From Ramazzottius varieornatus (taxonomy: Eukaryota; Animalia; Tardigrada), in contig BDGG01000001.1 in assembly GCA_001949185.1 (NCBI GenBank), positions 5,571,527 through 5,635,526 of the forward strand: a stretch of DNA of 64,000 nt, in the 5' to 3' direction. The notes under the pieces are model-generated. The model saw nothing but the letters and a program-made list of their open reading frames with translations. It was not told where the DNA came from and did not search any database. Shown piece by piece: positions 17,147 through 52,625 of this stretch. Each line of letters opens with the position of its first letter. The stretch's first letter is position 1. The position numbers and the translations under genes were made by a program.

Positions 17147-17495
17147 GAGCCTCCTCGCTGATCCTACGCGTCCTCGCGTAGTGCTCCATCGACCTGTTAT
17201 TCTCAAGTATTTCCTTGTTGGCTGCGGTTTGGCCTTCGGTCGATATTGGGTTGTCTTGAGTGTGGACGATTTAATGGCCCACTTGCGTGAAGTGGTTGTG
17301 GGTGTTTGCGGTTTTTCGATTTGGCTTGCGGTCAATGTGCAGATGGCTTGAGCTTGGACTGCGGAATTGCTCATTCGTGTGAAGTGGCTTGCGGACTTGC
17401 CGTTTCTCGATATAAATGCTCCGTGCTGTTATCACTGTCATTCAGTTGGTATTGCTTTGGATGTGTTATGGATATCGATTCGGAGGTGGAATGTG

Positions 17496-19349: not shown

Positions 19350-19669
19350 GCCTGCCAGAACTATAGCGACAGCCAAGAGGAGCAGGGATGAATGAATGTC
19401 GGTAGTGTGATATGATATGCCCAGTTGGTGAGATATCAAGAAGACTGTGCGATAGGAGGTTATAATCCAATGAGCCAGGAGAACTCCAGAATGAGAAAGG
19501 ACGACTGTGGTATAAGTAGAGAAAACACAGGTTCCTTGATGCCGCGGTAAGCAAAATAATAGATTTGCAGACGATGTAGAACGTGAGGTACATCGAAGTA
19601 TTTTCAACCAAAAACTGCGTCGGTCGGCACAAACGGGGAAGGGCAATCAGGTAATAAGTCTGAAGTGTG

Positions 19670-20460
19670 TTATTTTTTTTGAATTTTGAGATTTGATGAC
19701 GTCGTGCTCGTCAAAAAGAAACATGTGATGCTGGGTATAAGTGACTATCAGGCCGTAGTCGGTAAGGGAAAGATAAAGGATAGATGATTGACTGCCGGTT
19801 CGTCGGTTAGCGATGTAAACCGGCCATCGGACAGGCAGCTCAGAGCAACTGAAGGAGCTCCTCAGGCATGTCGAATGCCGTGAAGAACTCAGCGCATAGG
19901 TCGTGCCATTCAGGCACCATCGTCTCTCGTGGTTAAATGATGAGACAGGGTAGAAGGTACGTGTTGATGGCCATAGCTTTGACTAGCTGTTGGCCTCGGC
20001 GAATTATGTGCGCCGGTCGCGCGTACTGAAGTAAATGGTGGTAACGCTCGGTGTAGTTGGTACTAGGGTCTAGATCAAGGTGGCATCTGTACTGTCTGAA
20101 GGTAGTGGAGCTGAAATTAAATTGATCCAGTGCTTCAGGAAGCCGTGCCAACATGAGGATAGGCATCGCTTCCGGATAGACCACGTTGGTGACTGTACCG
20201 TCACAGAAGTAGTTGATGATGCTTGGAATGGTGCGGAACAGCTGGGCTTGACCCTCAGTGTGGAAGATCGGAGCGTAGATGTCATACAGTGCCGTCATCC
20301 ACGTGTTAGTGGTGGCGATGTCTTGGTGGTAGAGTATGCAGTACTGACGGTACATCGGTATCTGCAACAGCAACATTTCGGAAATGGGTTGTTTCGCGAA
20401 AGACTGAGTCGGTCGGAAACTAGCGCACGCATCGGTGGGATAGCCGAAAAGGTAAACCAT
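19670..20460 (-). pseudogene. Accessory ORF downstream of env (about 260-270 aa if two in-frame stops are ignored); unknown function
   Basis: The 175-aa ORF continues in the same frame past TAA and TGA: PRETMVPEWHDLCAEFFTAFDMPEELLQLL*AACPMAVY... Confidence 0.55.
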
Positions 20461-20529
20461 TAGGAGGGTGAGTAGTAGTTGTCGGGGTGGGATGCCGGGG
20501 TTGGTTGATCGTTCGGCAGTCGTTGATTG

Positions 20530-23240: not shown

Positions 23241-23729
23241 GGCGTGGTGGTTTTGTACGGGTTGATCGGCGAACCCTTGCAGCCGACTGGGTTTGGTCCT
23301 GGAGGTCCTCGTCGGACTTTGAGATGCTGTCAGCGCTAAGGCCCGATAACATTCGGTTTCCGCGTTATTTCTTGGTGTTTAGTACCTTGACCGCCTTGAC
23401 CAAAGACGTCGTTTGCGGATGAGTTCCCTGTCCGGATAAGCTTGGACTGTTCTCCCGCTCAGAGTTGGGAGGGTTTGCCAGATTAGAAACGCTGCGGTAC
23501 TTGCGTAGGACGGGAGGGTCTTCAAGTGCCTCCAACCTAGGTCGAGGCTTTGCTTCCCGAGTGGTGGCTGCTTGCGGTGCTACCTGCCTGCGGTGCTACC
23601 AGGCGGGAACCGGGAATCGTGAGAGGGGGCGGCATGGCCTTGGATGCGATATTCAACCTTTTTGGTGGGGTACGAACCCGTGGGTTGTCCATGCTGGACT
23701 TCGGAAGTATCTCGTCGGTTGTGGACTTG

Positions 23730-26700
23730 CTACAACGAGCAATCGTGATGGATAGTTGCAGCGTGTTGGGTCGGGTTGCAGGGTTTGTACGAGGAGGAGG
23801 TGGTTCGACTGTCGTTCCAGCAGACTATAAAGTCGTCCTCGTCGGCGTCGTCGTCGTGTTGCTCGTTGAGTTTTGCAGTTGTAGCATTCCGCGACACTTG
23901 TGTAGCTAGTATTGGACGGTCATTCGCTGGAACTGCTTCGTTATCAGAACTCTCAATGACTTTGAATTCAATAGGGTGAAGTTCATCGAAATCAGGTTCT
24001 TCGGGGTCCTCGAGGTCCTCGTCGCTGCCGGTGCGTCTAACATAACGTTTCAAACGAGCTATGTTAACAACGGTGCCCGTGTTTGAACCCGGACGGTTGT
24101 AACTAATGCGGAAGTTGTTAGGACCAGTTTGTTGCAAGATGTCGTAGGGACCATCCTAATAGTGATGGAGTTTGGATCCTACTCCTCTTGACCGTGCGGG
24201 GGGCTGAAGAGTAAAACTTGATTGCCTACTTTGAACGGAGTTTCCTTACGCTTGGGATTGTTATATGCCAAGTTGTATCGGCGTGACTCTCCCAGGTTAA
24301 ACTGAGCGTAGGCTCGAATGTTTCCGAGATGCTGGTGTGTGTCAGCGAGGAAGGTTCCGCGTAGTCGATCGGAAATGCAGAATCGAAACCGAAAAGACAC
24401 TTAACCCCATACATAACTTTGTAGGGTGACACTTTGGTTGTTTCGTTAGTTGCCGCATTAATGGCGAAAACAGCGTAAGGAACGTGACTGGCCCAGTCCG
24501 ACTGGGACTTGGCGCAAAGCTTGGCGAGCTGAGAACCCAACGTGTGGTGTCGACGCTCAACCACTCCTGTGGTTGTAGGTGTCCACGCCGTGTTCTTCAG
24601 ATGCTTCATGTCAAGCATTCTGAGCAGATGTTGCGTGATCTGACCAGTAAACTTCACTCGTAAGTCCGACCGTACTACACGGACAAACCCGTAGCGAAGA
24701 GCTGCTTCCAGGAGGAACTTAGCGAAAGTGAGTTCCGTGTGGCTGGATGTTGTTTTGGCAACTAGGAAGCCGCTGGACTGGTCGATGCAAGTCAGAATAT
24801 AGGTGTGACCGTTAGATGACCTTGTGATGGGTCTGACGGTGTCGCATACCACCGAGTGCCAGACTCGAGGTACCGTGGTCATGGACAGTCTCACAGACTT
24901 GTGTCCATAGTGTTTTCGGAAGGACTAGGCGCTGAATCTCATATCCCCGTTGGTCGTTGGAGACGTTGTAGAGGATCCCGTTGTCGATGGTGAACATCTG
25001 GGCGAGACGTTGGACTCGTTCTGTTGTATCCTGTGACTCTGTCGATAGGAATTCGATAATCGGTTTACAGAAGGGGTCCGTCAACTGTTCAGACGCAATG
25101 TCCAGTGTTTGTAAGTCGAGCTGAGCGGACAGGTATAGAAGCGGGAACTCAGCAGGTTCGGTGCTATCCGGCGGAACGTCACCGATGGCATTGCGGCTGA
25201 CAGCGTCAGCATCTTTGTGCTTCGAACCCGAGCGTTGGATATAAATGAACTGAAATTCGGATAACCGGATGGACCAACTCTGAAGCTTCGCGTTTTGAGG
25301 TTATTAATGAAGGTGAGGGAGATGTGGTCGGTGTAGACCACAACTCGTCTCCCAAGAATGTACTTGCGCCACCGATCCTCGCAGTACAATTTGCCCAAGG
25401 CTTCACGTTCCGCAGTTGAAAGGTTTTGCTCAGGGCGGGAGAACTTGCGAGAGCAATACGCAACCGGGTGAAAGTACTTGTCTGTACTATTAACTTTCTG
25501 TAGAAGAACTCCTCCACAGCTGGAGTTACTCGCATCCACGTGCATGGAGTACTCTGCTGTTTTCTCGTCAAAAAACGAGAGAACAGGAGAAGAACACATC
25601 TTTCTCTTCAACTCTGTGAAGGCAGCATCCGCTTCTGGACTCCAGATTAGCTTTTGTGTCTTTTCGACCTGCATACACTTGCGTAAGCGGATTAGCGATG
25701 CGGGCGAATCCATCGATGAACATTCTGTAGAATGAGCAAAGGCCGAGAAAGGAACGGCGTTCGGTTACCGTAACTGGTTTAGGGTAGTCTCTGACAGCCT
25801 CCGTTTTGGCAGGGTCTTGGGAAATTCCCGCTTCGTTGACGATGAAGCCGAGAATCTTTGCCGATGGCATGGCAAACCGTGACTTCTTCACGTTGACTGT
25901 AAAGTTTGCTTCCCGTAGACGCTGGAACACAAGGCGTAGCTTGGCTAGGTGTTCATCGAAAGTTGTGGAGCTAATTGCCAAGTCATCGACGTAGATTGAC
26001 ACGTCGCGGTTTAGCATGTCGCCGAAGAGAGTAATCATGCTTTGTTGAAAGATGGAACTGGCGAGGTTTACTCCAAACGGTAATACTTTATACCGAAATG
26101 TTCCAGCTTCTGTGATTACGCTAAGCTTGTCGCGCGAATCTTCGTGTACTGAGATTTGGTTATATCCTTGTACAAGGTCGATGGTTGTAGAATAGCGGCC
26201 TCCACGCATGGAATCGAGGATATCCGATATGAGTGGCATACAGTATTTAGGCTCCACTACTACCGTATCAAGACGCCGGTAGTCACCGCACATTCTCCAA
26301 CTGGGGGGATCGGTGTTCTTTGGGACTAGGACTACTGGGGAGGCCCAAGGACTGCGACTAGGTTCGATGAGCCCTTGGTCGATCAGCTTCTTTATTTCTG
26401 CGCTGATTATCTCCCGCTCTTTCTGTGGCATCCGGCGCACAGGCTGCCATATTGGCTTGGCATTCCCAGTATCGATACGAAGTGGCTCGACGTTAGCTAC
26501 GCCAATAGGGTGCTCTGCTGAGGAAAAGAGGTCCATGTGTTCTCTCAAGAGCGCTTTTATGGCGAAAAGCTGGTTTGATTCAAGATGCTTCCCGAAGACC
26601 AGGTCTGAATCGACGGCATCTGTCCTCTGGTCAGGATCGTTATCCACGAAATTTCCTGCTATGCAGAGTGTCAGCAGGCTGGCTACCTCTGCCGAAGGTT

Positions 26701-26980
26701 GTTTGTCCCACTTTTCATACAAAGTGGCTTGGTCATTCATCTGGTCACTGTCTTCCGTGGCGTAGAAGCAGTATGGCTTATCGCATGTGAATATTGTGTC
26801 ACGTACATATTGTATCATCGTGCAAGACCAAAGATGTGTTTTCCCACTGGTCTCGGTTGACGAACTCTTGCTTACAGCGACACCTGAAATTAGGACCAAG
26901 GTGTTGTGCTGAAGCGTGTGGGTAGGAGAAGACGTAAATGCGGTAGGCAAGCCATGAAGCATTTGGTGTCCCGCATACAC
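23730..26980 (-). pseudogene. pol: pol: reverse transcriptase, RNase H and integrase; several frameshifts
   Basis: PSRSPWASPVVLVPK, WRMCGDYRRL, LPFG, YVDD (RT); HVDAS, AEREAL, YTDH (RNase H); HTYILTCID, VRSD, GVVER (integrase core). Confidence 0.93.
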
Positions 26981-27025
26981 AGGTGAACGGATCCTTGGTT
27001 GACTCCAAGGTAAGAAGAGCCCTGT

Positions 27026-28973
27026 TTAGCCCAGAGCGAAAGATAGGGCTAGTTGATCCGTGTGATGCTTCGTGACGTTAATGGGAGGATATGTTGGACT
27101 CCTGATACACGATACAAACGTAGCGTTGTCCTTCTCGACCATTTGTTGATTGGGTAACTGATCACTAGGGACCAAGACTGGACTATTGGTCCCGGTCAGC
27201 TTGAGAAAGTCTGGCCAAGACAAGATGAAGTCGTATTTCTGTGGCATTAGTTGTAGTACATGAGCTCTGCACCATGTAGATCTGAAGTAGGCTGTAATTT
27301 TGAGGTCGATATGGCCTTCTGTGATCATCGTGTGACCGGTTGCTCTCACAATCTTGATGTGCTCGTCACGTTGCAGGAGGGGTAGCAAGGATAGCTGCTT
27401 GATAACATCCAAGGATACGCACGTGACTGTGCTTCCAGAGTCGAGTAGGGCAAAGGCTGGCATACCTTCGATTTCTAGCTTGACGATAGCTGGTTGACCG
27501 GAATCGGTTGAAACATGGTTCGTCAGGACATCGGTAGCAGTGTTGCTGTCATCGGAGGTCATCACAAGAATAGAAAATTGTTGTGGTGGCGCGTACGTCA
27601 TGGTGTTCATCTGGTCGCGACGTGCTTGAGATCCGGTAGAGACTTTGTTGGGTCGGTCCGGACAACCGGAGGCGAAGTGTGGTCCGCCGCAGACATAACA
27701 AGACACTGCTCGGTTGGTTGGTCTAGACGTGGCAGTGAAAGTCCTTGCTGACTGACTGGTGGTATTTGTGGTACCACCCGTGATGTTATTGTTACCTGGT
27801 CGTGTCTGTACTGTTTCCGTTGTGACCACCTCTTGTTACTGTGGTCTCGGTGTCTGGTTATTGGTGTCGCCGTTACGGTTATTGTAACCACCGTTGTAAC
27901 TACTGTTGGACCTGTTGAATCCGTTGTTGTTGCGGTTGAAACCTCCACTGAAACCACCTCTGTAGTTGTTTTCGTTACCGTTACCGCGGTATCCGCCGTT
28001 GTTGGAGTGTCCACCATAGCTCCGGTTGTTGTTACCGTTCTGGTACTGGTTGTAGTCGTTGTAACCTTGGTATCCTCTGTTGGACTGGCTGCGGTATCCT
28101 CCTCGGAAACTGGGTTGTCCGTTGAAGGCACCGCGATAATTGTAGTTGCGGTTGAAACCTCCACTGAAGCCACCTTTGTAGTTGCGGTTGATGTTACCGT
28201 TGTACCACGTCCCATTGTTTTGCCGTTCGGGCGTGTAGACACGAGTCTGCACAACTTGTGCTGTTCGGTGTGGCATCGGGTCCGCTTTGTCGTTAGGCAT
28301 TTGTTGTTCCCTAAAGAGTCGAGTTTGCTGTGACGATTTCTTCTCTGCCTCGATGACTCGAGCAGTGATCTGCTTGAACTGTTTCGTTGTTGTGTGCTGG
28401 TCGGCGGTTCCACCAGGAATCCGCTGAGTCACGGAAGCGTAAGGACGCATGTTCCACCATGTCCCTCGCTGGAATACGTTGAAGCTTGCAAGCCGTCTCA
28501 AACTTCTTGATGAACATACCGATTTCTTCGTCGTCATGGCCGTGGAACAACCTCATTGGAATGTTGATTTTTGTGGCTGCTATAGCGTCGATGAGGTTAT
28601 CGGCATCGAGCTTGACTTTCTTCGGTATTTCGTTGGCGTTGTCATCGTCCTGCTGTTCGGTCTTAACTTTATCGACAGCGTCTGTCTTGGGCAAATTAAC
28701 GAACAGACCTTTCGCTTCGTCGTTTCGTTCACCTCTTTCTCCCCCTTTTTCTCCATCTTGTCGTTCGATGTCGTCACTGTTGGCGTTCTTGGCCATTCTA
28801 TTTTGTTGTTGTGCGGCTCTGGTTGCTTGAACGTGCTGGTTGTGGTGATGGTCTACCAGATCAGCGTTGATCGAAGAAATTGGTGGGTCCACGTCGGAGG
28901 CAGGTGAATTGATATGTCCTCCTAGTCGGCGGAAGGTGGACGCAACAAATGACTTTGCGTACTCAGTTGCCAA
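27026..28973 (-). pseudogene. gag: gag (capsid-like region, N/G/R/Y-rich region, CCHC knuckle) plus aspartic protease; frameshifted
   Basis: LFHGHDDEEIGMFIKKFETACKL...ADSWW (retrotransposon gag-like), CYVCGGPHFASGC knuckle, ALLDSGSTVTCVS protease motif. Split over ORFs 28311-28973, 27836-28537 and 27026-27829. Confidence 0.88.
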
Positions 28974-29281
28974 GCTGTCGGTGGTAGCGAAGAAGTAGTC
29001 GAAGTTGACGACTGTAACGTGCTATTGGCAGAGGGCGGTAGTGGCAACGTTGAGTCGTGATGATCAGATAGATTAGGAAGTTCGGTATCCGTGTTAGTAA
29101 CGTGCTTAGTTTTGACGACGGTTACTTCGAAACGTTCTTCTGTTTTTTGTGGTGACGTAGGGACTGACGAAGCGGTACGAGCTGTACCCTTTTCGGGCGA
29201 TGCTGATATTGATGCAGACTTCCTTCGCGGAATTACCATCAAAAACGGTAAGATGATAATGAAGTGCAAGGCAGACCGTTT

Positions 29282-29554
29282 TGTAAAGCCTCCCACTGGC
29301 TTAACAAGAACCCTACAAGGTCGGTCAATGAAGAAGGAATTAGGATCAAAAGAGAACTGATTGGGGAGAGTTTTCTTTATCAGTAATGCTAGGTCTCAAG
29401 AGAAGGAAAGGAAAAAAGGAGTCCCGACTGTCACTGACCAGTCGGTTTATATACTTTGACAGCGAAGCAGAAGGAAAGAGAAAGTTCTAGAAGTACGTGA
29501 ATTGTTCGTGCTGATTCAGCACGAGTGCTTCATTGCCGAGGTAAGCTCTTTACA
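29282..29554 (-). repeat. 5' LTR (273 bp)
   Basis: No differences from 16874-17146 found by eye. Confidence 0.95.
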
Positions 29555-29643
29555 GTTTTAACCAGCAAAGGGTCCTTCAGCATTAGAAAGGCCGAGCGAG
29601 TGAGGAAAAACACCAAGAAAGGACAAACTAAGATCACTCAAAG

Positions 29644-38119: not shown

Positions 38120-39191
38120 GCTTTCACGTACGTCTAATGCGCGTTCTTTCGCACGCATGGCGTAACTAAACGTGTCCCTTCTGGGCCACTGTGTGCTGTG
38201 CGACTTCAATGCGAAAATGGGCGATTGGGCCAGCGGTAAGGTTTAAAGCTGTACGAAAACATAGTCCCACAGTCTTTCACCATCTTTTTTGAAATGGAGG
38301 CGGAGCGCACAGTGCGCACTGAAAGAAAGCATGCGCACACTATAGAAGTAACGTGCGTGACGTCAAATGTGTTCGCAACTCAGAGCGAGACTGTGCAGGC
38401 GGTATGGTGCGCTAGGTTATCTTATAGCTATAGTAATGTTTACTTGCTGCGCATACACGCCCACACTCGGAAGGCTCACCAATCAGCCTGATATACCTCC
38501 TGCATGATCAATCTGTTGGGTAAACAAGCCGAGCAGGTTGCATTCAAGTAAGGCAGTAGACTTGACATCCTGATGAGTGAGCGTCGCACAAACTCGTACT
38601 TAGTAGGACCAAATCTGACTTTTGCTGCACAAGTTGTGCACAGCAAATTTAAAGTAAAGAGAGAACCATACGAAACAGTCTATTACCGGTACTGTATTCT
38701 CTCCGGTAATCTCCGTACGTCACAGCCGATATTTATGTTAGGGAGTTTGCGAAGCAAGCTGTCAACTTTTCATTTACGTCACCTCACTAGGTCAATCTGA
38801 CGAAAAATTGTGAACACTGATTTACTCGTCCGAATCGAAGTTTCTAAGTCCGGTTCCTCAATCTACTCATCCTTCACAGTAATCTTACAAGCAGGTTAGA
38901 AAATCAGAGTGTGACCTGAACAAAAAAGTTTTGCTAGAAAAAATGCAACAAATAGCACAATGCGAATCTTACTTACGATTGATTGCATATGCTTGATTGA
39001 GTGTGAGGACGACACGGTTTTACCGCTGTGGCGTACACCGCAATCTCACTGTTACATCGTTTGTTGAAACCGTTCGAGTGACGTACGGAGATTACCGGAA
39101 AGAATACAGTAGAGTACAAATCCAAGAGATTAGATAAAAACACAGACACGAAATTCTGCATCAGGCTCAAAGCAGTCGCACTGACGTTGTG

Positions 39192-39410
39192 AGGAGGAAC
39201 ACTCGTCCATACGCCCCGACACCCGGGGCACCGCCCTCGAGAGATGGTCCTATGAGGGGGTTCCCCTGCTCGAAGAAGTTGTTCGAGGGTAGGCGCCCTA
39301 CTGACCCCAATAAAATGGCGCACTACGTCACCGGAAGTGCATGACGTTGTCGAATCGATCCGATGGCGCACTCGTGACTTTCTTTGATTTACTTTGCGGG
39401 TCTTCAAGAC
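39192..39410 (+). repeat. Left TIR of the Polinton
   Basis: Reverse complement of about 50930-51156 with scattered mismatches. Confidence 0.9.
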
Positions 39411-40939
39411 CTCTTTTGTCCTTTTGTTGATTCATGTTTCTGGATCTTGGGATTTCTTTTTTCTTTTTCTTTATTGTATTATTACAAGTAAAAGGTCTGA
39501 GAAAGAAAGGTTCTGCTAGGCCTCAGAAATTCCTTCGTCAATGTCTAGATCCAAAGGCAAGTCGTTTTCGTTATTTTCGTACTCGGTTAGACAGAAGTAG
39601 TCCTCAAGAGGAATCGGCACCGTCTTCCCCGTCCTTGGTCACCCTCGGCAGCAGACAACGATCTTTCAGGTCCTGGTACACCATTTTGGCGCATGAGTTG
39701 ATGGCGCACTTTTCGCAGCACGAAACCTATCCTTTGTAGTCTTGTCCAGAAGCAAAGCAGTGCGCAGTGAATTTCCCATACTGTAGGGTAATGATGTAGT
39801 CCCGAACATGACATCCTGCGTCCTGAAAAAGAATCCGGACAACGTCGGCATAAGTGGGATACACCATTTTGACAAGCAAAAGACTGAAGAATGAATAGCA
39901 CAGCACACTGTGTGATTTTATAGCAAACTCAAGCCACCCAAGAATAGTCTGTGACGTTGGAGAAAATGACGCTTAGTACCCAAACAAATCAAAAGTGCTC
40001 GGGCGTAAACGAAGTACTGTCGTCTTGGATGCCTTCCAGCCGCGGATATAGGAGCAATCAGTGCACGGGATGATGGTTCTAGCACCAGGCTGGACGGCTT
40101 TGGGGATCATGCCTGATTTCATGGATTGGTAGACCTTCAAGGCGCAAGAGTTGCGAGTACAGACGTCACAACAGGAAGAGTTGCTTCCTCGGAATGGCGT
40201 AGGAGACCAGGGAGTTTCTACCACAGCAATGAAACTGCGGGAATTGGGATGAAGATAAAAGTTTTCCAGATGGATGCCATGATGGAGCGCGATACAGTCC
40301 ACAGCTTCAGCAAAGGAATAAGCTGTCATTCTAATCGTCCGTGGGCTCCACAGGGATGAAACCGTTAGGAATGCAGTACTCCTGCCGCGTGTTTCCGTAC
40401 AGTGCGACCTTCTCCAGACAGAAATGATCCGAGCAGGGGATAGGCAGTTCGATTCCAGAACGCGTACTCTTTTCCACCTGTTGGCACTCTTTCAGGTAGA
40501 TCTAGACCTTCCTGGAACAAGAATTAACAGCACAAAGACCACAGCAGGAGACTTCACCCTTAAAGGATGTCTTCCACAGACGAAGTGGAAGCTTGACAGT
40601 GGCCAAGAATTTGCCGTCGTTAATCGAGATTATGTTGTATTGGGGAGTAATTCCACGATCCGCCAGGATAGTTCTGACAATCCTTTCAAAAGTGTAAGCA
40701 GACATACTGGCAAGAATGGGACTGGTTATACGTTGAGCAGGTTTGTTAAGTATAACTTTTCAGCACCCAAGCAGAGTGAATGAGATACATACAACACTCA
40801 TGATAAGGATCAAGAGAGCAGGGGAGGCGTTATCTTGTTCAGACGCGTTTGTACATGTCTAATCTTGTTAGCAGTGCCGACTGTTGAATAAAAGGCACCC
40901 AGGAGCTGATTTCTGCAGTTGTAACTTTTAGTTTACAAA

Positions 40940-42257
40940 ATGGCGCCTTTTGATGTAGGTGGTGTTCTCGTTTTCGGCGTTTCGGATCCCGTGTGGCAAA
41001 CGATGGCTCAGAACCATGAATGGGAGTCCCTGGGGATTGTTCGTCAGGATGATTCCATCTCGATGGACACAGTCCTGGGATTTGCTCTGTCGGATTCGGG
41101 TGTAGGCCTGACTGACCTCATGCGAGAGCGTCATGGGCACAAGGGAAAATCCAGAGCGGCTCTAGTTGCTCATTTGGACGAGTTCAATCAACTGGATCCG
41201 TCCGTTCCATCGCAGACACCGAAAGCTAGCGCAAAAGATGAGGATCTCCCTGAATCCCTGCGGGGAAGCACTCACCAGAACACTTCGGTGGCTCGTCTCT
41301 TCCAGGATTTCGACATTGGGGAACCAGAGGCACTGGCAGATCTGACTGTTTTACTGGAGAAGCACAATAAGTTCCAGTTTGGTTCTTCAGTCTGGAGTGT
41401 CAAGGCAGACCATCAAGGATGTCCAGTGTGGCTGCGAGGAGTCAAGAACCGAACGGAGATGCATCTTCGTACACAGGAGGTTATGCATCTTTTACAGTAT
41501 CTAGTGTCTAGCCGGTGTTTCTCGCAGATGGAGTTAGCAACTATAGAGCCGGCAGGAGAGAGATGTATTACCCATGTATTACCTGGATGACGACATCTAC
41601 TTCACCTAGAGCCGATGGAATAAGCAAGATGTGGCTACCGTTTGTCGTTTTAAGCAGCGGAAGAATCTGGACCTTTATCCAACGAAGGAAGGCTTCAGCT
41701 TTACGGAAAAGTTTTACTACGCACTGTTGGACATTTTCCAGACCAAAGAACCACTTCGACAACTAGCCCGTCTGTCACCTGATGGTTCAACCGGGTTCCC
41801 TTTGAACCCATCAGCCACAACTTTTGATTCTCCAACGGTCCTTGACGCTATTGCCCGTGCTCTGTATCATCTCGTCTATGTTCGACGTTGTTCCACATGC
41901 CAACCCTGCACTGACTCTGCGCGAGGCAACGGTCTGCAGTACATACAGATGCGCAGTGTCCCTGGCCATACCTGTGTCAGCAAGTCGGTTGGCATCACCA
42001 CCAGAGACGGACCCATCACCGAGGGAGAATGGAGCATGGTGGTGGATTCACTTAAGGCGGAACACATGCTGGAAGCGTACCTCTTGATGATTGGACAAGG
42101 ACGAATCTCCGAATTGGCCACACTGAAAGTGGATGAGTATCTGAATCCACGACGAGATCGTCTTCATAATGCCATCGACACCTATATCAAGGATACAGTA
42201 CGCTTTGAGATCAATATCTCTGCGTATCGTAACGATGATTCTAGTCCTGTAGTCTAA
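40940..42257 (+). pseudogene. Polinton accessory gene with PC4/SUB1-like ssDNA-binding domain and Cys/His cluster
   Basis: YLDDDIYFT*SRWNKQDVATVCRFKQRKNLDLYPTKEGFSFTEKFYYALL resembles the PC4 PxKKGISL signature, followed by CSTCQPC...HTC. One frameshift and one stop join the two ORFs. Confidence 0.5.
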
Positions 42258-42489
42258 GTAGAGTAGCAGTAATTGAAAACTAAATAATTCTGCGATTTTG
42301 CTTTTATTTTTATCGCATTTTTATCTGTCTTACAAATTTCTCAAAAACTCATCACTAAGAATTTCTGTGTTTAAATGCAAAAAATGGTTAACGTATTGGC
42401 ATACCATGATACCATTGGCTTTTGTATAGTCAGTAAGCAAATGAACAATGTGTGAATATGACTCATGACCAACTCTTCGCTCTTCGCAG

Positions 42490-43357
42490 AAAATCCTCAC
42501 TGGGTACGAAGCCAATGAAAACAACTTTGGGCAAAGCGCCGATATGCAGGTTGGAAATAATGGTGGTTTGCACACCTCGTACAATATCGATCGTTCGCAT
42601 AATAGTACGTTCAACGGTGTATTTTATGGTTTGCTTCGGTAATTCTTCGGTAACTTTGATTGAATAATCGGGAGCAGGGATGAAACGCCGAATAGCAATC
42701 TTGGGATTCCGAATAACAACTTTGAACTCTTTATCTGGTGTTTGATCCCACACCTGGAGATAATACTCTTTACGGCTCTGAGCCACCAGCCGGATGCCCA
42801 AGGGAACACCGGTTATAAGCGGTTTATCTTATTCGAAAAGATCGCACGCCAGTTTGCCCGAAAGTTGTACGAAATCGCCGTTGGAAAAGAGAGCACGTCG
42901 CCACTTGGCACTCTCGTTGTGATCCTGCGAGTTGTGCCGACCAGGTATATCCACTCGAAAGCCCGCGTGGCCCAGAATGCTTTGCGCATTAGCGCGAGAG
43001 TGGAAGAGCAAAGCTGCCATGTATGCACGATAACCCATAATTGCAGTTTGCGTCGGAAACTAGTTTGTTCCCTACGGTCAGCTCCACTGATTGGAACAGT
43101 GAATGAAGAATATTATTGACAGGTGCTACGAGATCACTCTCGCCAATGAAAGCCCACAATCCATCCTTCGTTTTTACTTTGATGGCGAGCTCCAGTTCCA
43201 GAGTAACGTTAGCCAAATCAAGTAGACCGTTACTGCTTGCGGGAAGAAAAAAATTAATGTCTCCGGTAGTTCCGTCATCCGTCAGGATAGTTGTTGGGTT
43301 TATCCTTTCAGTCTCTGTTCTCCATCGATCGGTATTCGTTACGGGCACACTAAACAG
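42490..43357 (-). pseudogene. Polinton major capsid protein (double jelly-roll), truncated
   Basis: LFSVPVT, INFFLP, LDLANVTL, VAPVNNILHSLFQSVELTV, NYGYRAY, LACDLFE, GALPKVVFIGFV. Confidence 0.88.
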
Positions 43358-43554
43358 CTGCGGCGCTGCTGCGCGAAGAGCCAGTTGAGCCATCGCAGCT
43401 ACCCCAGCAAAAAGAGCTTTGAGTACTTGCGGGAATCCTGATCCGTTTTGGTACGCCGAACCGCGGTACCGGACCATTGGGTTGCCTCCGCCCTGCGCGT
43501 GACCAAAAATTTGATCATACCGCTTGGATCCGGTTCGTATCGAGTGAGCTGCAT
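43358..43554 (-). pseudogene. Amphipathic virion protein (cupiennin/pVI-like), fused by deletion to MCP
   Basis: QGGG...YRGSAYQNGSGFPQVLKALFAGV matches the Polinton pattern QxGxG...GxxYQxGxG. Confidence 0.65.
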
Positions 43555-43559
43555 AGCGT

Positions 43560-44483
43560 TCAGAGGGGACGAAAACGGCGAAAGTGAAGTTTGACTACAG
43601 TTTGACTACGTTGAACTTGACCGTTTCTCCCAGATCGTTAGCCAAAGTGATGTGTATCGTTTCAAAGTTTGTAAGTGGTACAGGGACGCAATGGCCAATG
43701 TCGAATCATTCAGTTACCACGTCCATAGGACCGCCCTTAATAGGCACACTTCTCAAAAACTGCGCTTCGACATCGCCTACGGCGGAGTAATCTGCTACGT
43801 CGCAGTACACGTACAAGTGATTGATTCCCGGCCTTCAGGTTCAGGACCCTTGTACCTGTTCGAGTTCGGGCTCCATTTTCCTTGTGAAAAGTTTGGTCGA
43901 ATGCAAATTCAACTCCCAGTTCGCTATACTCCCATTCGTGCGGTGACCAATTAAAATCTTTAATTCCCATTTCCGATGCCGACGGTTTGAAGAAGGCGTC
44001 GCCGTCGGGTAACCCCAAAATACCACACAGCTGTTGCGCATCTTCGCCAAACTAGAAACTCACGCACCAATCGAAAAACGTAACGTTCACTCAATGATCA
44101 TTGGGCCCCACGAAAGCAATAGTAAAAGGCGTTATATCTTCACCGTATTCGGGCATCTGCGAACGAATGCAGTTTAATAGGTCCTCGCCGGTTTTGTAGT
44201 ACCCTGGAGGGACAAAAATGTCCTTGGTTTTAAATTTTATATCGTTTTGCAGTGCACCAACACATCTCCACTTGGTGAACAAAATTACTTTGAATTTTTG
44301 TTCTGTTTGTAGTGTGAACATGCTCTGCATATATTGCAGCTCAGACAGACACAATTCCCATTGTCCTTTTAGGTTGACTGAGTGAAGTAGCTTGGTGTAC
44401 CAATCGGCGGCACTGTTGGTTGAGAATTTGTCCATATAGGCATCACTGGGTAGCGTTAGGTAGAGCTCTCGGAACTCGGGCAT
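43560..44483 (-). pseudogene. Polinton minor capsid protein (penton)
   Basis: LYLTLPSDAYMDKFSTNSAADWYTKL...GQWELCLSELQY at the N-terminus and PVPLTNFETIHITLANDLGETVKF near the C-terminus. Confidence 0.82.
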
Positions 44484-45316
44484 CGTTTTCAGGTAACCAG
44501 GAATCGGACGGTTCGTTGTATCCCAACCACCGAACTTTAATCATTCGTCGACCGCGAATAATTTTACGTTTCGACACTCGCTCAGTTTTACATGTCCAAT
44601 CGAGTTGATTGCGAACAAGGGACATTTCACCTTTGATAGACCTGTTGGTTTTGTGCTCTTTCAATCTGTAGATGGGAACACGCTGAGGTACCACGTGATT
44701 GACGACGTAAAGCTCTGGCTGGAAGCGGTCCTCATATCCTCTTTTAAACTGGAGCTTATTCTCGAATATTCGAACAATGTCGCCCACTGTGTATCGATGT
44801 GTCTTCTTGGGCTTTTCTTCCCGCTCAATTAAACTGGCACAGCGTGTTAAACGTTTTCAGTGAAGTCTTCTCATTCTCATTGTTCTTTTCCAGGGTCTTG
44901 TTGATAAATTCTCTCCCCTTATCGAACTGGATTCTCTCTGGGACTCCCAGGTCTTTGATTACTTGATTGATGGCGTCTTTAACAGGAGGGGTGTTTTTGT
45001 TGGGGAGTGGTTGTACGCTGGCTTTGCGGCTGAAGCAGTCGTTGGCCACCAGGAGATACTTTGTTCCGTCGTTCTGTTCGTGAAACTTTCTCATGTCGGC
45101 TAGATCCATTTGGTACTGCTCCGTCATGTCGTAGACAATTATCCGATTTCTCGGGAAGCACCGCCTTGTTTCTTTTCCAGTAGTATGAGGATCGGTATTT
45201 TGTAACGCGCGTAATACGTCGTCCTTGTTCGCATCGGTGGCTCAGCGTAGTCTCTCCACACCCCCGAAGCTGCCCGGGTTTTGTGAATCGGTATACGCTT
45301 CGATCAGTTGATCCAT
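44443..45316 (-). pseudogene. Polinton retroviral-like integrase with C-terminal chromodomain; internally deleted
   Basis: NPGSFGGVERL, YQMDLADM, KYLLVANDCFSR, IQFDKGREF, GDIVRI...FKRGY, VRWLGYNEPSDSWL. Confidence 0.9.
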
Positions 45317-45451
45317 CGGTGCAGCAAGAACTGACGAAGGTTACACGAAATTCGCGACAAAGTCGCAGCACAGTGGGTAGAAATGCAGAATTTATGATGT
45401 TACTGTAGGACTATCCACCGTTCCTCAAATCCACCGGCACCCTTTTACTTT

Positions 45452-46235
45452 TTAGTGACACTGGTGGATAGACGTGGAGGAGCGCGCTTGGAACCACGAG
45501 TAGAATGTCGTTTTTTTGTCACCCTTTTTATCAGTTTTGTCAGGCATTTGACGTTTAGCACTGCGGGAAGGTAGGGCTGAAACTTTTAGTGGCGCCACTG
45601 GTTCGGCTTGCGATTTAGTGTTTGACTCGGCGGTGTCCGTTAGATCAGATACCTGGACCGACCGACGTCTGCGGTCCGGTTTCGGTACAATCAGTTCCGC
45701 TTGCGATTTACTGTTCGGTTCTGCTGTGTCCATCAGATCGGATTTTTGAACGGGTTGACGCTTCCGGCTCTTTCTCGATAGAATCGGCTCGACTTGCGAG
45801 ACGGGGGGCGTCTCCGTGGTATCCATCAGATCGGCTTGAAGAAACGGGTCGTCGTTTTCGAGCTGGCTTTGACTCGAGTGGTTCGGGTTCGATAAGGTCA
45901 GGAGGTTCGGTCATATCCATCGAGTCAGCTTTTTGCACTGGACCCCTCTTTACTGGCACACCAGGCACGTCTATGTCGTGACCATGTCGTGCTTTTTTGT
46001 TCAACAGCCTTCTTTGTTTAACTCTCTTACCCAGTAACGTCGCGAAATTCGCAACCTTCCTGGTAGGTCGCATAGGGGCTTTGGCTGCTTCCTCTGGCCT
46101 TTCAATCGTTTTCACAATATTCCCCAGTAGATATCGTAGTGAAAGGCCGTCAGAAGATTCAGCTGGGTGACTCGCCGCCTTATCAGCAACCTGTTTTTCC
46201 ATAATATGTTTGGGAACAATGCAGTATGCATCCAT
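45452..46235 (-). pseudogene. Basic/acidic repeat protein of the Polinton (putative core protein); frameshifted
   Basis: About four ~30-aa units (KRxPVQKxDxMDxxE...) across ORFs 45708-46235 and 45452-45826. Confidence 0.5.
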
Positions 46236-46563
46236 TTGCGTGGGAAGTAATCACCAAGCCTATAACGGAAGCTAAAATGGGTAAGATTGCTCCGATGAAT
46301 CCACCTTGTTGTAGGATTTTCCTTTTTTCTTTCAGTGGATAACGCTTTAATACTAACAGACGCAGAGGTTTCCCCCAACGACGGCAGACCTTGGCCTTAT
46401 CTTCTGATAGAAAAACAGTGTATTTAACTATGTTCAGAGCCACTTCTTCCATCGCTCTCATCTGATCTTTGGATGCCATGGACAGTAAAGTTTTCCTCTG
46501 GCTTGGTCGTAGTCCTGCCAGCGTGATGACGTACGGCGTTAGGCGGTCTACTTTCTCGGACAT
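46183..46563 (-). CDS. Adenovirus pX-like Polinton virion protein
   Basis: EVALNIVK...KRKILQQGGFIGAILPILASVI, i.e. a GG-F cleavage-like site followed by a hydrophobic stretch. Confidence 0.75.
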   Translation of the reverse strand: MSEKVDRLTPYVITLAGLRPSQRKTLLSMASKDQMRAMEEVALNIVKYTVFLSEDKAKVCRRWGKPLRLLVLKRYPLKEKRKILQQGGFIGAILPILASVIGLVITSHANGCILHCSQTYYGKTGC

Positions 46564-46614
46564 GGCGTGGAACTTGCGTTTGGTTACGCGAAACGTAAGT
46601 TTTCCTTAGCTGCC

Positions 46615-47243
46615 CTAAGCTCTGTTTCATTTGCTGATGCGTAGCACTTTTGCTACCCTGACCACGCAAGCGTTCGTCTTTCCCAGAATCTGAAACGGCT
46701 ATAATTTTTTGCTAGCTCGTGGGGAACGAATGGCCGTTAAAGAAAGTCGAGATCAGCTCTTGGTCATCCCGCTACCGGGGAATATCAGCCGATAAGATCT
46801 TTGATCCTCGTCATGTACGACCCCGTACACGTACGTACGACGGGAATCAGGCCCCAGTCATAACAGACTGTCAGCGCAGTCCACGTACCAATCAACANNN
46901 NNNNNNNNNNNNNNNNNNNNNNNNNNNNNNNNNNNNNNNNNNNNNNNCGCCCAAGTCTGATGTTGATTGGTACGTGGACTGCGCTGACAGTCTGTTATGA
47001 CTGGGGCCTGATTCCCGTCGTACGTACGTGTACGGGGTCGTACATGACGAGGATCAAAGATCTTATCGGCTGATATTCCCCGGTAGCGGGATGACCAAGA
47101 GCTGATCTCGACTTTCTTTAACGGCCATTCGTTCCCCACGAGCTAGCAAAAAATTATAGCCGTTTCAGATTCTGGGAAAGACGAACGCTTGCGTGGTCAG
47201 GGTAGCAAAAGTGCTACGCATCAGCAAATTAAACAGAGCTTAG
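46615..47243. repeat. Foldback insertion: about 283-bp inverted arms flanking an N gap
   Basis: 46615-46897 is the reverse complement of 46961-47243; one mismatch seen. Confidence 0.85.
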
Positions 47244-47840
47244 TTGAATGTGACTTCGCACCCTTAAATAGTCTGGTGTGTCAGGTTCCATATCAACCAC
47301 TAGTGGTGTGTGAAGTTTCTTGGTTACAGCAGCATAGGCTTCAGACAGGTGAGACAGCCCTGTTTGACGTTCCACGACTTTGATCTGGTTAACATCCCGG
47401 ACATTTTTGTACAGAATCAAATACTGGGCGTTGAGATGCACATCTCGCATGCTTTTTCCCTGTTTGTATAAATTCCGCATAGGCAACAGAATACAAACGT
47501 TTTTGTGATGGATGCCTTGAGTGAATAGTTTACTATAGCCAGTGTCGTCCGCTACGTTCTGTGCCAGATCGTCAATGACGAGAAGAGTAGGAACAGCTGC
47601 ATCAAAAAAGTCCTTATCTAACACTTCGGCTAATCCCGGAATGAACTCGACGTCATGGTTTTCCTGTATGTCGCGAAACTTGTCTTGCCACGCGCCGTAA
47701 CTATACACAGTGCGGGGTGGGGGTTGATCAATCATCTGGTCTTTATGACGAATGAGATCAAAGACAAACTGACTTGCCCGACATTGTCGGTCCGCAAATT
47801 ATGGCGCCGAACGGCACCCGTAAACGTGTATCGAATGCAA
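47229..47840 (-). pseudogene. Polinton A32/FtsK-like packaging ATPase
   Basis: Walker A ICGPTMSGKS in a shifted frame near 47770-47800, Walker B LLVIDDL, LFTQGIHHKN, LNAQYLILYKNVRD. Confidence 0.9.
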
Positions 47841-47914
47841 CGGAAGAATACATTTTTAGGTGCTCAAAAGAGTATTGAAGCATGAAGTCTCTGTACTGAT
47901 CCGTACGTCCTAGA

Positions 47915-48378
47915 ATGGCTCATCCAGTGATTTTTGACTATGACTGGTTCATCATCGACGGCAAGGCGCACTTGAAAAAACTAGCCTATACCGTTCCTAG
48001 TTTGAGAAAGTTTGGTTGTTTTTCGTTCACCTTACCGCCAGGGTCGCAGAATCATCGACACGTCCTTCGGTCTCAGGCTTTCCACTCTCATCATCTAGCA
48101 TGGTCAACACGGGGAGATTTCCATTATCATCAGGTGCCTCTGGCCATCTCGATTATTCTTAAGCGTTTATGTCGTCGCCCATCGGAGATGCGATTCCTTG
48201 CCAAAGCACGGAGAAATGTCAAATCATGGAGGAGTGGCTGCCGGAAGTGAGAAACCTGGAGGACTTGGGTTGTCCCAAATACGAGGAGTTGACGGAAGTA
48301 CCAAAGAGCACTCGCAACAAGGCTCTTATCTTTGCCCTGTGGCACGCATCACAAACGTCGTCGCAACGGCCTCGTTAG
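47915..48378 (+). pseudogene. Polinton accessory DEDD-like nuclease-fold protein
   Basis: VIFDYDWF...LKKLAY, HHLAWSTRGDFHY, K..EK, VRNLEDLGCP; one frameshift. Confidence 0.6.
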
Positions 48379-48457
48379 GATGCCAGCTCGACCTGAGGGA
48401 AATTGACCGAAAGCTTTCCATGACGCAGTTTATTCCAAAAGAATTTTCCGGCCTGCC
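48339..48457 (+). pseudogene. TATA-binding protein (TBP)-like N-terminal fragment
   Basis: ARITNVVATASLGCQLDLREIDRKLSMTQFIPKEFSGL versus the TBP first-repeat pattern NxVxTxxLGCxLDLxxIA......YxPxxFxxx. Confidence 0.72.
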
Positions 48458-48680
48458 ATTTGGCACTTTGAAGAAAGTACGGTAGGCCTGTTTGCCGAGT
48501 ATATCAACCGTTTCCTGAAACTCAAGACAGAATCGAGTGGGTGGCCGGTCAACTGTACAACTCCAGCGGAAAAGAGGCAATTCATCATGGAGTTTGAGCA
48601 GAAGGAAGGAATCCGTTTAGAAGAAGGTGAAATGGAGCAGAACGCGGGGATGAGGGCCTTGTCCAAGCTGTGCCTGAACA
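48458..48680 (+). pseudogene. Protein-primed DNA polymerase B fragment
   Basis: IWHFEESTVGLFAEYINRFLKLKTESSGWP...EGIRLE...NAGMRALSKLCLN (Polinton pPolB up to motif B); not listed in the ORF track. Confidence 0.88.
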
Positions 48681-49303
48681 GGTAAAAACTTTTTTTATGG
48701 ATATTCTTGGTTGCTGGATTTCGGTCACTGGTGTCACGGTCTTCATCGTTGATGGTCGCATAGGATACATGGCACTGCATCAATCCATGAAAGGGGATGG
48801 CGACTACAATGACGACAACACTCCATCGACAATGGTTTTTATTTTAACAAATATTTTTATACAATACTTATATAAATATTTTTATTGTTATTTCAGGATC
48901 AAGATTGGGGAGAAGGGATATAACCCTGATTACCTGGCTATCGAGTATCCACTCGAAGCCAGAGTAATCGTCACGGGTTGCGGTGAAGGGACCTGCGAGA
49001 CCGAGCACTACTTGCCCGCTCCCATCTCCCCAACAACCACCGACGAAGGGATCAACGTTGTTTCGGGGGGCTTCACCCCACCACCAACTCCATTGTCGAT
49101 GCCACCGCCACCACCACCAGCAAACCTGGACGAGGCTGCCGTTGGTCTTGCTGCTGTTTCTGTTGATGACGCTTCACCATCACCAATCACTCGTGAGCTA
49201 TCTCAACGCGTCGTCAGCGACCTTGCAGCCAAGGTTCCTAAAGAACCCAACAACAGCAACAACAACGGAGACCATAAAAATAGAGGAGCTGTGCCATTAC
49301 GAC

Positions 49304-49757
49304 TAATAATGAGCATTACACGCAGCTGGTCCGTGTAATGTAAAGTGTAATGTAAAACAGTGTAATTGTAAAAGTGTAATTACATTTCACACTAGTTTAT
49401 ATTTTACACACCGAGCGGTTTGTAACGCATGAAAGTGACAAGGAGCGACGAAAACGACGAATCAGCTATGTCTATGTTTGCATAGAATATAGATCTTAGT
49501 AATTGTCTTCCAGACAAAGATAAAAATACGGTTGCAGAATGACCATACTCAGGAAGTTTCTGACATTTTTCCGCGTAAGTCAGTCGAATTTCAGATTTCT
49601 GGCGGCAAAATACTCAAAAATACCGCAGATTCTGGCAGGTAAAAGTTGTAATTACATTCTACATTTACATTACAACTTCCCCGTGGTTGTAATGTCGTGT
49701 AAAAGTGTAATTGTAATGTAAAATGCAATCTAATGTACAATGTAATGCTCATCATTA
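49304..49757. mobile_element. hAT-type MITE with TGTAA subterminal repeats, nested in the Polinton
   Basis: TIRs TAATAATGAGCATTACA / TGTAATGCTCATCATTA and a perfect 8-bp TSD ATTACGAC (49296-49303, 49758-49765). Confidence 0.88.
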
Positions 49758-49857
49758 ATTACGACGACAAGATGTGTCAACACAACGGGAAGCTGTGCTG
49801 TGTGCAGATCCGGGTCAAAAAGTGGGACCCGATGGAAACGCCGTGGTGTAAGTTCTT

Positions 49858-49930
49858 ATGACATGACATGACATGACATGACATGTTATGTTGTATGACA
49901 GGCATGACATGTTATATGACATGGCATTAC
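49858..49930. repeat. (ACATG)n pentanucleotide microsatellite, degenerate
   Basis: ACATGACATGACATGACATGACATG followed by variant units. Confidence 0.85.
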
Positions 49931-50929
49931 ATTAAGTAAGCAAAATTCAAAAAAATCCCAAAAAGTTCAGAGCATTTTGTTCTATATTTCTGATGTATGA
50001 TTTTCTCTCTTCGCAAAGGCAAAGCGACACGCGAGCTCTGAAGAAGATCGTCGAGTTCACTGTCAACCAGCAAGGGTACCCGGACTTCTACAAGTTGTAC
50101 GTGTGGGCATTTAGCGGTCCCGTGTGGGTGCGCGCGATCGAAATGCCGCAAGAGGCAATCCATCGCCTAGCCTGCTTCCACCATCAGCGTCTAAAGAAGG
50201 CGCGTCGACCCTTGAAGGAGCCCACCTGAAGCTGACCGTGGTCCAGAACCAGCTGGTGGAGCTTGCCCAACCAGACGAGGAGCCACCTGTGCAGTATGTC
50301 CGTCGTGGGAAAAAGATGTCAGTCAAGAACCGATTGGTTCTTCAACGTCACCACCTGGAGAAGACCATCAAAGCGGCCCAAGAGGTGTACAACGAATAGT
50401 CCCGTTTCTTAGAGGCCAAGTTGTTTGACTCTTGAGGCGTGTATCGGTGTCGTGTGACACCAAAATATTTTTTCACATAACCTTCTGGAAAAAATATTCC
50501 CGTTTTATTCGAGTAATCTTTCATTGTGATTCTTGTGACATTTATAACTGCATTTTATCGAAAGGAACCTGCATTGATATCTACCTGTCCAGAAAAAAAA
50601 GCTAAATGTAAAATTCAAAAAAATCTGTAACAATAGGGTTCTGCTGCTCAAGCTTAGGGAACATTAAATCTCATAGAAAATTGCCAACAAAAACTTTGAA
50701 AATTTGTCAAAAATTACCAGGACAGAAAAATCACAAATACCTTCAGAACAGACCAAAAGTCAGTGATGCGGATCAGAAACAACGAACTAGTACCGAAGAT
50801 TCTGAAAGATGGAAAAGTTTTTTGGAAAATGCGCCATTTGATCGGGCCAAGCTTAAAGAGCCTACCCATGTCGTGGGGCGCAGGATCAAGTAGGTTTAAC
50901 ATAGGATGTTGCGCCACTTCATCCGATCG

Positions 50930-51156
50930 CCCGCACAATAAATCAAAGAAAGTCACAAGTGCGCCGTCGGATCGATTAGATGACGTCATGCACTTCCGGT
51001 GACGTTGCGCCATGTCATCGGGGTCAGTAGGCGCCCACCGTCGAACGACTTCTTCAAACAGGGGGATCCCCCTCAGAGGACCATCTCTCAGGGGCGGTGC
51101 CCCGGGTATCGGGGCGGTGCCCCGGGTATCGGGGCGTATGGACGAGTGTTCCTCCT
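50930..51156 (-). repeat. Right TIR of the Polinton, with an extra 20-bp tandem copy of GGGGCGGTGCCCCGGGTATC
   Basis: Inverted match to 39192-39410. Confidence 0.9.
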
Positions 51157-51564
51157 GTTGTGGATTCCAGTTTCCTCATCCAGCCATGGTGCTAATTCAA
51201 GCAAATCACAAACCGTTATACACGTGCCGCCGATCATCTCGTCCACCTTTTTTTCAGTCTTCGCGATATGCGGAAGCGTTTTCTTCATGGCGCACTTGAC
51301 CTTGCTTCGTATCGACTTTTTGAAATGTTTGCTCAACATGCCGTAATTTTTTTCTATGAAAACGAGGCATGCAATCGGCTTGCAATGGACATTAGTGTAC
51401 GCAAAACCAGGTGTATCAACTGTCAGACAATCTCCCAGAATTTCAGCCACTAATTTACGTTGATCAGATTGTCTCGTCTGCTTACCACATAAAGAACGAA
51501 ACAAAAAATTCACATACTTATCTATCCTGTTGGATTTATTTCCTTGGACTTTCAGCTTCACATA

Positions 51565-52625
51565 TTAAACAATGGATGGATTAAAGTCGTCCAGGTCCTC
51601 TTCAGGTTCCCAGCTGCCGGCTTCAGGGCTGTATTTTTCCACCGGACGAGCGAGAGATTCTCGCTGTCCATTGACTCGTCTATCGTTGATTATCCCATTC
51701 ACCTCGTAGACATCGTCCTGATCTTCTGGCGGGATGCTAGGCTGCGAAAACTGACGACGGATGACTGGCACGCGATAGTTAACAAGGGATTTACGCCAGT
51801 CTGTCAACTGTGATCTTCAAACAAATTTTTACAGCGCGTTGTGCTTTGTACAAAGTTTTGTTTGCCCAAGCTACTGAGTGTTCTCGGTTCTTGTCTCTCT
51901 GAATAGGGACTACTTCTACACCAACCCCAGTAGCGTCGGGTATGAATTTGATCGACTTATCCGAATCGAAGTGACATAAGGTCGGTAGAATAATCAGCGT
52001 ATTCTTAATTGCCACAAAAGCCATTTCGTTTAAGTCACTGAACACGAGGCCTTTCTGTTTTAGTCTAATAAAAGGATGCGCAGTAGGGGCGAACTCCCTG
52101 ATGGATCGACGGTGGTACGCTGTAGGCAAATAAGGTACTCCAAAGGAACTCCAAAGGTGGCCAGGTCAAAATAGAGTTTTTGACCGGTGACATAGAAAGT
52201 AAACAGCTGATCAAGCTGCAATCCAGAGCAGTGAGATGCAGCTTGATCAGCTGGTTACTTCGAGTCGAAGTTCCTACGTCACCAATCGAAAACTCGGTTT
52301 TTGCCCTGTCCCCTTTTAGAGTACCTTATTTGCCTACACTGCAACCAGTTAAACCTAATAAAGATCGCACGGCCTTAAGACTTCCTGGTGGGACGAAGTT
52401 CCTGACTGCCACTATTAACACCTCCTTCTCATCAGGTTCTAAACCACTATTCTAAACCAATATGATGACCGATGAAGTTATGCCACTTTTGCCAAAGTGG
52501 CATTTGGACAGTTTAATTTTAAGACTTGCCGCCTCAAGTCGTTTCAGAACTTCCTCTAAATGTACAAGATGGTCATCAAACGTTTTAGAGAATTTGTTAA
52601 ATCATCCAAATAAGAAAGAAAGTTT
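51565..52625 (-). pseudogene. Old Gypsy pol remnant (RT C-terminus, RNase H start, chromodomain)
   Basis: YLDD, DDHLVHLEEVLKRL...KLSKCHF, AVRSLLGLTG, PTLCHFD...DATGVG, YEVNGIINDR...SWEPEEDL. Confidence 0.8.

Follow-up and report, generated by a model that had tools for sequence, protein, structure and literature searches.

In Ramazzottius varieornatus, we identify a fragment of a TATA-binding protein (TBP) gene that is almost certainly a piece of a real, conserved TBP family encoded by Polintons, preserved in a dead element. The fragment lies in a 64,000-nt stretch of contig BDGG01000001.1, hereafter the window. The copy in this genome is too short to work: it is half of one of the two TBP repeats, in a decayed element, and therefore can neither redirect polymerase nor act as a decoy. 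Its intact relatives in other data sets encode full-length proteins, on which the discussion of function below is based.

The 39 TBP codons match positions 3-41 of the Pfam TBP profile (PF00352), which describes a repeat of 85 positions, with an E value of 2.8e-7 and 30.7 bits (cut-off 22.9), and all 35 PDB chains matched at E<=10 in a sequence search with the fragment contain TBP. These results bear out the initial annotation, which had proposed a TBP-like gene here. Its further description of that gene as intronless is true of the sequence over the 39 codons, and the overlap that it noted with the end of the upstream DEDD-like gene is confirmed, the final 13 codons of that gene running over the TBP start in another frame. 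The stop-to-stop frame holding the fragment spans 48099-48485, with no Met at the site where most relatives begin. In yeast TBP numbering, anchored on the first Asn, the fragment retains N69 and F99; the remaining intercalating Phe and central Asn sites are absent with the missing part. A six-frame scan of the window with the family profile found no second TBP piece. With half of repeat 1 left, the window lacks the two-repeat saddle that is predicted for the intact relatives.

The fragment sits within a decayed Polinton (Table 1). Like Polinton/Maverick elements in general (adintoviruses, Polintoviricetes), this element has terminal inverted repeats (TIRs) with AG...CT ends, a 6-bp target-site duplication (TSD), an rve integrase (broken), pPolB (a 74-codon remnant), an A32-like ATPase and putative capsid genes; it differs from them in being broken, without a detectable protease and without almost all of pPolB. 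The rve match and gene-by-gene matches to five Polinton loci (L002-L006, described below) support the identification. As had been claimed, the fragment lies inside the TIRs; these have GTTGTG on either side. Stops, frameshifts or internal losses break the ATPase, integrase, PC4-like and DEDD-like genes and both putative capsid genes.

Table 1. Features of the element and of the TBP locus (positions in the window)
Feature	Position	Strand	Remarks
Decayed Polinton/Maverick (adintovirus-like) element	39192..51156	.	11,965 bp as assembled; AG...CT ends, TIRs, 6-bp TSD
Left TSD GTTGTG	39186..39191	.	
Left TIR	39192..39400	+	about 87% identity to right arm; other genomic contigs show loose ends at 39192
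PC4-like gene remnant	41571..41978	+	one stop in aligned part; 25% identity to L002:7976-8527
Putative major capsid remnant	42490..43369	-	frameshift, stop; 47-52% identity to 442-aa L002 ORF
Putative minor capsid (penton) remnant	43613..44462	-	frameshift and 3 stops; inferred label, Pfam blank
Retroviral-type integrase remnant	44494..45301	-	stop, about 90 internal codons lost; rve E 1.2e-9, weak Chromo
Small basic protein gene, weakly adenovirus pX-like	46246..46563	-	57% identity to L002 homologue
A32-like packaging ATPase remnant, frameshifted	47247..47885	-	head to head with DEDD-like gene; 53% identity to L002 ATPase
DEDD/DnaQ-fold (MAEL-like) gene	47915..48378	+	frameshift near 48200-48223; 3' end overlaps TBP start
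TBP gene fragment	48339..48455	+	39 codons left of about 168, covering the first half of repeat 1
Rearrangement junction TBP/pPolB	48456..48458	+	bridged in runs X1 and X6
pPolB remnant	48458..48681	+	74 codons; 51-54% identity to L002 and L003 pPolB
GT-AG intron	48682..48763	+	removed in run X4 contig (RNA by guess); joint 48679>48762, cut +2
Second GT-AG intron	48835..48896	+	removed in run X4 (RNA by guess); joint 48833>48896, cut +1
Right TIR	50930..51156	-	contains short internal duplication
Right TSD GTTGTG	51157..51162	.	

Several gene labels draw on the better-preserved relatives. The L002 ATPase exceeds the Pfam Pox_A32 cut-off, and the L003 counterpart of the pPolB remnant, which is the sole pPolB piece in the window, matches DNA_pol_B_2. 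The L002 homologue of the PC4-like gene matches PC4 with E 7e-5, under the curated cut-off, and the small basic protein matches Adeno_PX with E 0.059 in the window and 0.0028 in L002. Pfam gives no match to the putative major capsid gene, which is labelled from its size and position, and the conserved ORFs fit both; its 3' part was not found. A tblastn search for an adenain-type protease gave no match in the element at E<0.05. L002 has one (Pfam Peptidase_C5), and we read its absence here as a loss in a decayed copy.

To our knowledge, TBP is not a Polinton core gene. A phmmer search of 1.84 billion representatives with the fragment gave 37 matches, of which those with the highest whole-fragment identity (48-55%) form a distinct group. 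The top phmmer match (P0003) was set aside as a repetitive, spurious protein. A profile built from six members of the group drew 105 proteins from 2,771 candidates, and 61 had E values of 1.3e-33 or less. We define these 61 clusters, of about 170 aa and mostly 168-186 aa, as the TBP family; our family alignment (A3) holds 56 sequences, with six short or partial members of the 61 excluded. A separate word-index search with the 42-aa fragment gave one archaeal-type protein from seven candidates.

The family HMM scores the fragment at 50.9 bits, compared to 31.2 for eukaryotic TBP/TRF1-like, 39.9 for archaeal and 42.6 for other divergent TBPs. All of the best 30 among 117 BLAST-scored rows belong to the family (49-68% identity to the fragment). 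Family members share a median of 21 residues with the fragment (maximum 25), compared to 13 (maximum 19) for the eukaryotic comparison set, which consists of 10 TBP/TRF1-like proteins and does not include TRF2/TBPL1. The very high identity expected of a canonical host TBP is thus missing against these 10 proteins, none of which exceeds 19 identical residues. A tree with host TBPs had been proposed as a check: the fragment falls inside the family clade with support of 100/99 in a careful 29-row tree and 99 (SH-aLRT) in quick 72-row trees, the comparison again being one without TRF2/TBPL1. Forcing it together with eukaryotic cellular TBPs is rejected, if marginally, with p-AU 0.041 for a fragment that fills 23% of the tree columns. 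Accordingly, the claim that this lineage carries its own divergent TBP holds, since the fragment groups with the Polinton-borne family. The two findings that had been named as fatal to it, a failed HMM match and near-identity to host TBP, did not arise: the HMM match reaches significance, and canonical TBP is only distantly similar to the fragment.

The only named family members are two copies from another tardigrade, Paramacrobiotus metropolitanus (P0102 and P0149), annotated in RefSeq as 'TATA-box-binding protein-like' genes. Annotated host TBP paralogues such as these may be Polinton genes.

The genomic context of the family comes from a scan of at least 597 metagenome stretches, which gave at least eight confirmed loci. 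Five of these (L002-L006, four of the five from the single assembly JFJP01) hold family members, and Polinton genes are present in all five. A DEDD-like gene lies directly upstream of TBP in four of the five relatives, as in the window, and overlaps the TBP start in L003, L004 and L005. The gene order of L005 is that of the window: capsid module, ATPase, DEDD, TBP. In L006, TBP adjoins the ATPase and no DEDD-like gene separates the two, and in L002, L003 and L004 pPolB is convergent with TBP. Three further loci (L007-L009; 35-38% identity), in which no Polinton context was seen, were dropped from the synteny count. Scans of viral contigs confirmed none of 28 stretches with the DEDD-like protein and none of 155 with alignment A1; they gave one weak locus with the pPolB remnant (L001) and three with A3 (L010-L012, of 212 stretches), all left unused.

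The DEDD-like gene itself matches its family HMM in two frames (iE 7.5e-27 and 5.8e-16) and ends with a stop at 48376-48378. Pfam is blank on the gene and its relatives. The AF2 model of one relative (P0187; pLDDT 93.9) has as its best Foldseek match an RNase AS-like protein (E 2.3e-4), the only one at E<=0.001; the listed matches, weak as they are, are nearly all DEDD-type nucleases or Maelstrom. An ESM Atlas search leads to Maelstrom (0.84). As candidates for the four catalytic acidic residues of such nucleases, the family has a first motif of the form D/E-x-D, an Asp that never varies and, later in the sequence, an equally invariant Glu. The 42 residues upstream of the fragment in the TBP frame are an off-frame shadow of the DEDD C-terminus and match the N-termini of P0048-P0050. 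Three of nine DEDD-like matches share the source and contig size of a TBP match, which, like the shadow, speaks indirectly for the DEDD-TBP pairing.

Recovery of full ORFs from intact sibling elements had also been suggested, and was achieved only outside this genome. We searched Logan contigs for siblings. In run X1, possibly the source of this DNA, 47250-49333 and 40332-46600 are each covered by a single contig with zero differences and at flat depth, so we find no intact sibling of these parts at >=80% identity in that run. Support consequently rests on elements from other data sets, where full ORFs are found. For the TIR region, run X1 holds a few other, internally shortened copies. Other genomic copies of 39192-40600 retain the TIR and left-arm region with internal deletions. 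These copies have deep cover in runs X4 and X11, both RNA-like, and are possibly expressed non-autonomous derivatives.

Per-residue scores place the end of TBP similarity at 48455 and the start of pPolB similarity at 48458. Contigs of run X1 and of run X6, a different sample, span this junction with zero differences, and the junction is therefore real DNA; two pieces of run X4 extend too few bases past it to count. The initial annotation had explained the joining of TBP to pPolB by a deletion. The junction stands, but since all three relatives that show pPolB (L002, L003 and L004) have it facing TBP, proof of a simple deletion is missing, and an inversion plus deletion fits equally well. The fetched DNA of L005, which otherwise shares the gene order of the window, contains no pPolB. 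A marginal TBP-like extension beyond the junction was rejected: it scores 1.3, a value reached by 1.9% of random frames, against at least 23 in family members, and it overlaps clear pPolB sequence.

The TBP/pPolB remnant probably belongs to the 5' portion of a spliced RNA, given that most of 47250-49000 has cover in run X4 (RNA by guess) and that two introns are removed just downstream. The contigs of this run show neither strand nor level. Zero cover of 42510-46071 in the same run is not used as evidence. On the spliced RNA, an open frame with two exons and about 160 codons (48797-49338) comes after the pPolB remnant; its second half is Pro-rich, and its last exon has no match in Pfam or in L002-L006. 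The pPolB genes of the relatives (L002:10507-13650 and L003:1548-5683) are divided into at least five open frames, with a pyrimidine-rich ...AG at the two boundaries inspected, which suggests spliceosomal introns. The remnant in the window begins about six codons past one such boundary and ends at the spliced GT donor.

The TBP of intact relatives is a compact protein with two repeats, about 170 aa long and without N-terminal extension, predicted to fold as a normal, full TBP saddle: the AF2 model of P0063 has a pLDDT of 97.1 and a TM-score of 0.93 to human TBP (1cdw), and ranks structurally closer to cellular than to viral TBPs. The L003/L004 pair is under purifying selection, with a dN/dS of 0.075 (8.5/372 nonsynonymous and 30.5/120 synonymous sites by Nei-Gojobori, for this one pair, from assembly JFJP01).

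Among the 56 aligned sequences, N69 is kept in 50, N159 in 56, F99, F190 and F207 in 55 each and E188 in 54. The two central Asn and three of the four intercalating Phe are thereby retained, and the fourth Phe has become Tyr (F116Y, 55 sequences). The alignment further shows that family-specific swaps are fixed on the strands expected to read DNA: L114Q (53), V122T (55), T124N (56), V213N (54) and T215L (52). One Glu of the TFIIB stirrup (E188) is thus kept, and another (E186) is found in 24 of 56; L189/I and the PELFPG loop are retained, and the basic helix-2 patch is variable and mostly lost.

Based on these residues, we favour, without great certainty, the view that the Polinton TBP serves its intact elements as their own promoter-recognition factor. 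The nearly invariant, non-cellular residues of the DNA face, the partly kept TFIIB stirrup and the eroded regulator surface together point to a private promoter factor working with host Pol II; we infer this role from residue patterns and from the herpesvirus precedent. The family TBP would bind and bend an AT-rich box unlike the host TATA box, and would recruit TFIIB and Pol II of the host without being subject to TFIID. It might thereby drive the capsid and packaging genes, as herpesvirus TBP mimics do. In R. varieornatus, a rearrangement has joined the first quarter of this gene, now dead, to the 74-codon pPolB piece. A search for a shared promoter box upstream of 33 genes of L002-L006, with starts guessed from ATGs, gave nothing significant: the best words were TTAAA (family-wise p 0.25), CATCGC (0.15) and ATTTAAG (0.10), with TTAAA-like words near the top of the ranking. 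With these values of 0.10-0.25, the earlier proposal that the protein redirects host Pol II/III to viral promoters is not borne out.

The same null promoter search is consistent with an element TBP that acts as a decoy or competitor on host TATA or TFIIB sites or on TBP regulators, damping host transcription or defence. The predicted full saddle and the retained E188 would suit such a role, and the neighbouring gene with a DEDD/Maelstrom-like fold could be counter-defensive ('MAEL' labels appear in the text of Suppl. Fig. S2 of Starrett et al.). Cellular regulators grip the basic helix-2 surface of TBP. It is this surface that is eroded in the family, while the new residues of the DNA face are nearly invariant; a protein decoy predicts the reverse, and we regard this explanation as unlikely. 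Less likely again is a role in replication, integration or packaging rather than in transcription, in which the protein would bind element DNA and, for instance, bend terminal or origin sequences. The family-specific conservation of the DNA face, the variable E186 and the position of TBP next to pPolB (L002-L004) or the ATPase (L005, L006 and the window) would agree with it, but E188, L189/I and the PELFPG loop are retained and the TIR in the window is GC-rich with no obvious AT box. Known viral TBP homologues, moreover, act in transcription. For KSHV ORF24, a role in transcription is described in PMC12529657.

The remaining alternatives concern what the fragment is. A piece of host TBP or TRF captured by a single copy, or a chance match, could be suspected from its 39 residues, from the single copy without intact sibling in run X1 and from a comparison that leaves TRF2/TBPL1 aside. 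This explanation is barely credible given the identity to the family (median 21 residues, above the 13 of eukaryotic TBPs), the tree and the AU test, and the identical DEDD-TBP overlap in intact Polintons; the synteny largely refutes it. An exapted fusion, in which an 89-codon frame from an ATG at 48216 through the TBP fragment yields a dominant-negative half-domain, is very improbable as well. The frame is open from that ATG, and run X4 (RNA by guess) covers this part and shows splicing downstream. Nevertheless, the ATG arises incidentally from a Lys-Cys dipeptide that is conserved in the overlapping DEDD frame, the sheet cannot be built from half a repeat (the model has strands at 39-64 and beyond), and selection is not measurable on one copy.

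Returning to a promoter factor of the element's own, we compared the family with known TBPs. Cellular TBPs (yeast 1ytb and human 1cdw) share the two-repeat saddle with the relatives, whose model gives TM-scores of 0.92-0.93, whereas the relatives show 30-34% identity, no N-terminal extension, the fixed swaps and the eroded helix-2 basic patch. Beta- and gamma-herpesviruses and nucleocytoviruses likewise encode a TBP fold, with viral promoter recognition as its likely role. The nucleocytovirus TBP-like proteins in BFVD are only 8-23% identical to the family, with TM-scores up to 0.82, and are structurally further from it than cellular TBP. The KSHV ORF24 TBP mimic requires an extra C-terminal DNA-binding domain and partner proteins (PMC12529657), unlike the Polinton TBP, which is a bare core in an element of about 15 kb with no RNA polymerase gene seen.

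A TBP in such elements is not wholly unpublished. The legend of Fig. 5 in Starrett et al. 2021 (PMC8502044; preprint 10.1101/697771) carries the label 'TBP' for a MELD-virus, without analysis; there too, a midsize element of linear dsDNA with pPolB has a TBP-like gene. The label belongs to a section that treats non-animal data sets, and the animal adintovirus maps of Suppl. Fig. S2 have no TBP label in their text. Adintoviruses in the same paper carry 'MAEL' and 'SSDBP' labels, which may match the DEDD-like and PC4-like genes here. We found no paper analysing a Polinton TBP in the literature searched, with most subscription papers and figures outside its reach; term look-ups gave no occurrence of TBP in PMC11296320 or 10.64898/2026.06.19.733378. 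In PMC11662393, 'PC4' is a cluster label. The PC4-like gene in the TBP-bearing elements is a putative second host-type transcription or ssDNA-binding cofactor, perhaps the 'SSDBP' label of Starrett et al.

Tentatively, these genes may mark a widespread Polinton branch with a minimal transcription kit, consisting of a specificity-rewired TBP core, a MAEL/DEDD-fold gene and a PC4-like cofactor, that runs a private late-promoter programme on host Pol II. If so, an integrating virus of about 15 kb would be a miniature, independent parallel to herpesvirus late transcription, and the elements would offer direct evidence of a regulated viral cycle. This bears on how Polintons turn on their capsid genes and on whether they form particles alone. 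An element TBP with a changed DNA-reading face predicts a TATA-like box different from that of the host, and would be a natural TBP of altered specificity in the form of a small, soluble protein. Being a fossil, the locus in R. varieornatus tells little about function. What it contributes is an independent host lineage, an element with exact bounds and evidence that DEDD and TBP were paired long ago.

Finally, the surroundings of the fragment hold further repeats. A high-copy MITE-like repeat (49304-49760; summed X1 depth above 3,000) is inserted in the right arm of the element, and a perfect 283-nt inverted repeat flanks a 50-N gap at 46615-47243, probably as an artefact of scaffolding; another of this type, 37 nt long, ends at the gap 14685-14842. 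Chromodomain and RT-RNase H remnants lie just beyond the right TIR (51568-52165), which suggests that an old Gypsy-type element lay at or near the insertion site of the Polinton. Further upstream, identical 281-nt direct repeats enclose a 12.7-kb stretch with long minus-strand ORFs (16867-29555), likely a recent LTR retrotransposon, and another identical repeat pair, of 303 nt, is found at 29751 and 31903.
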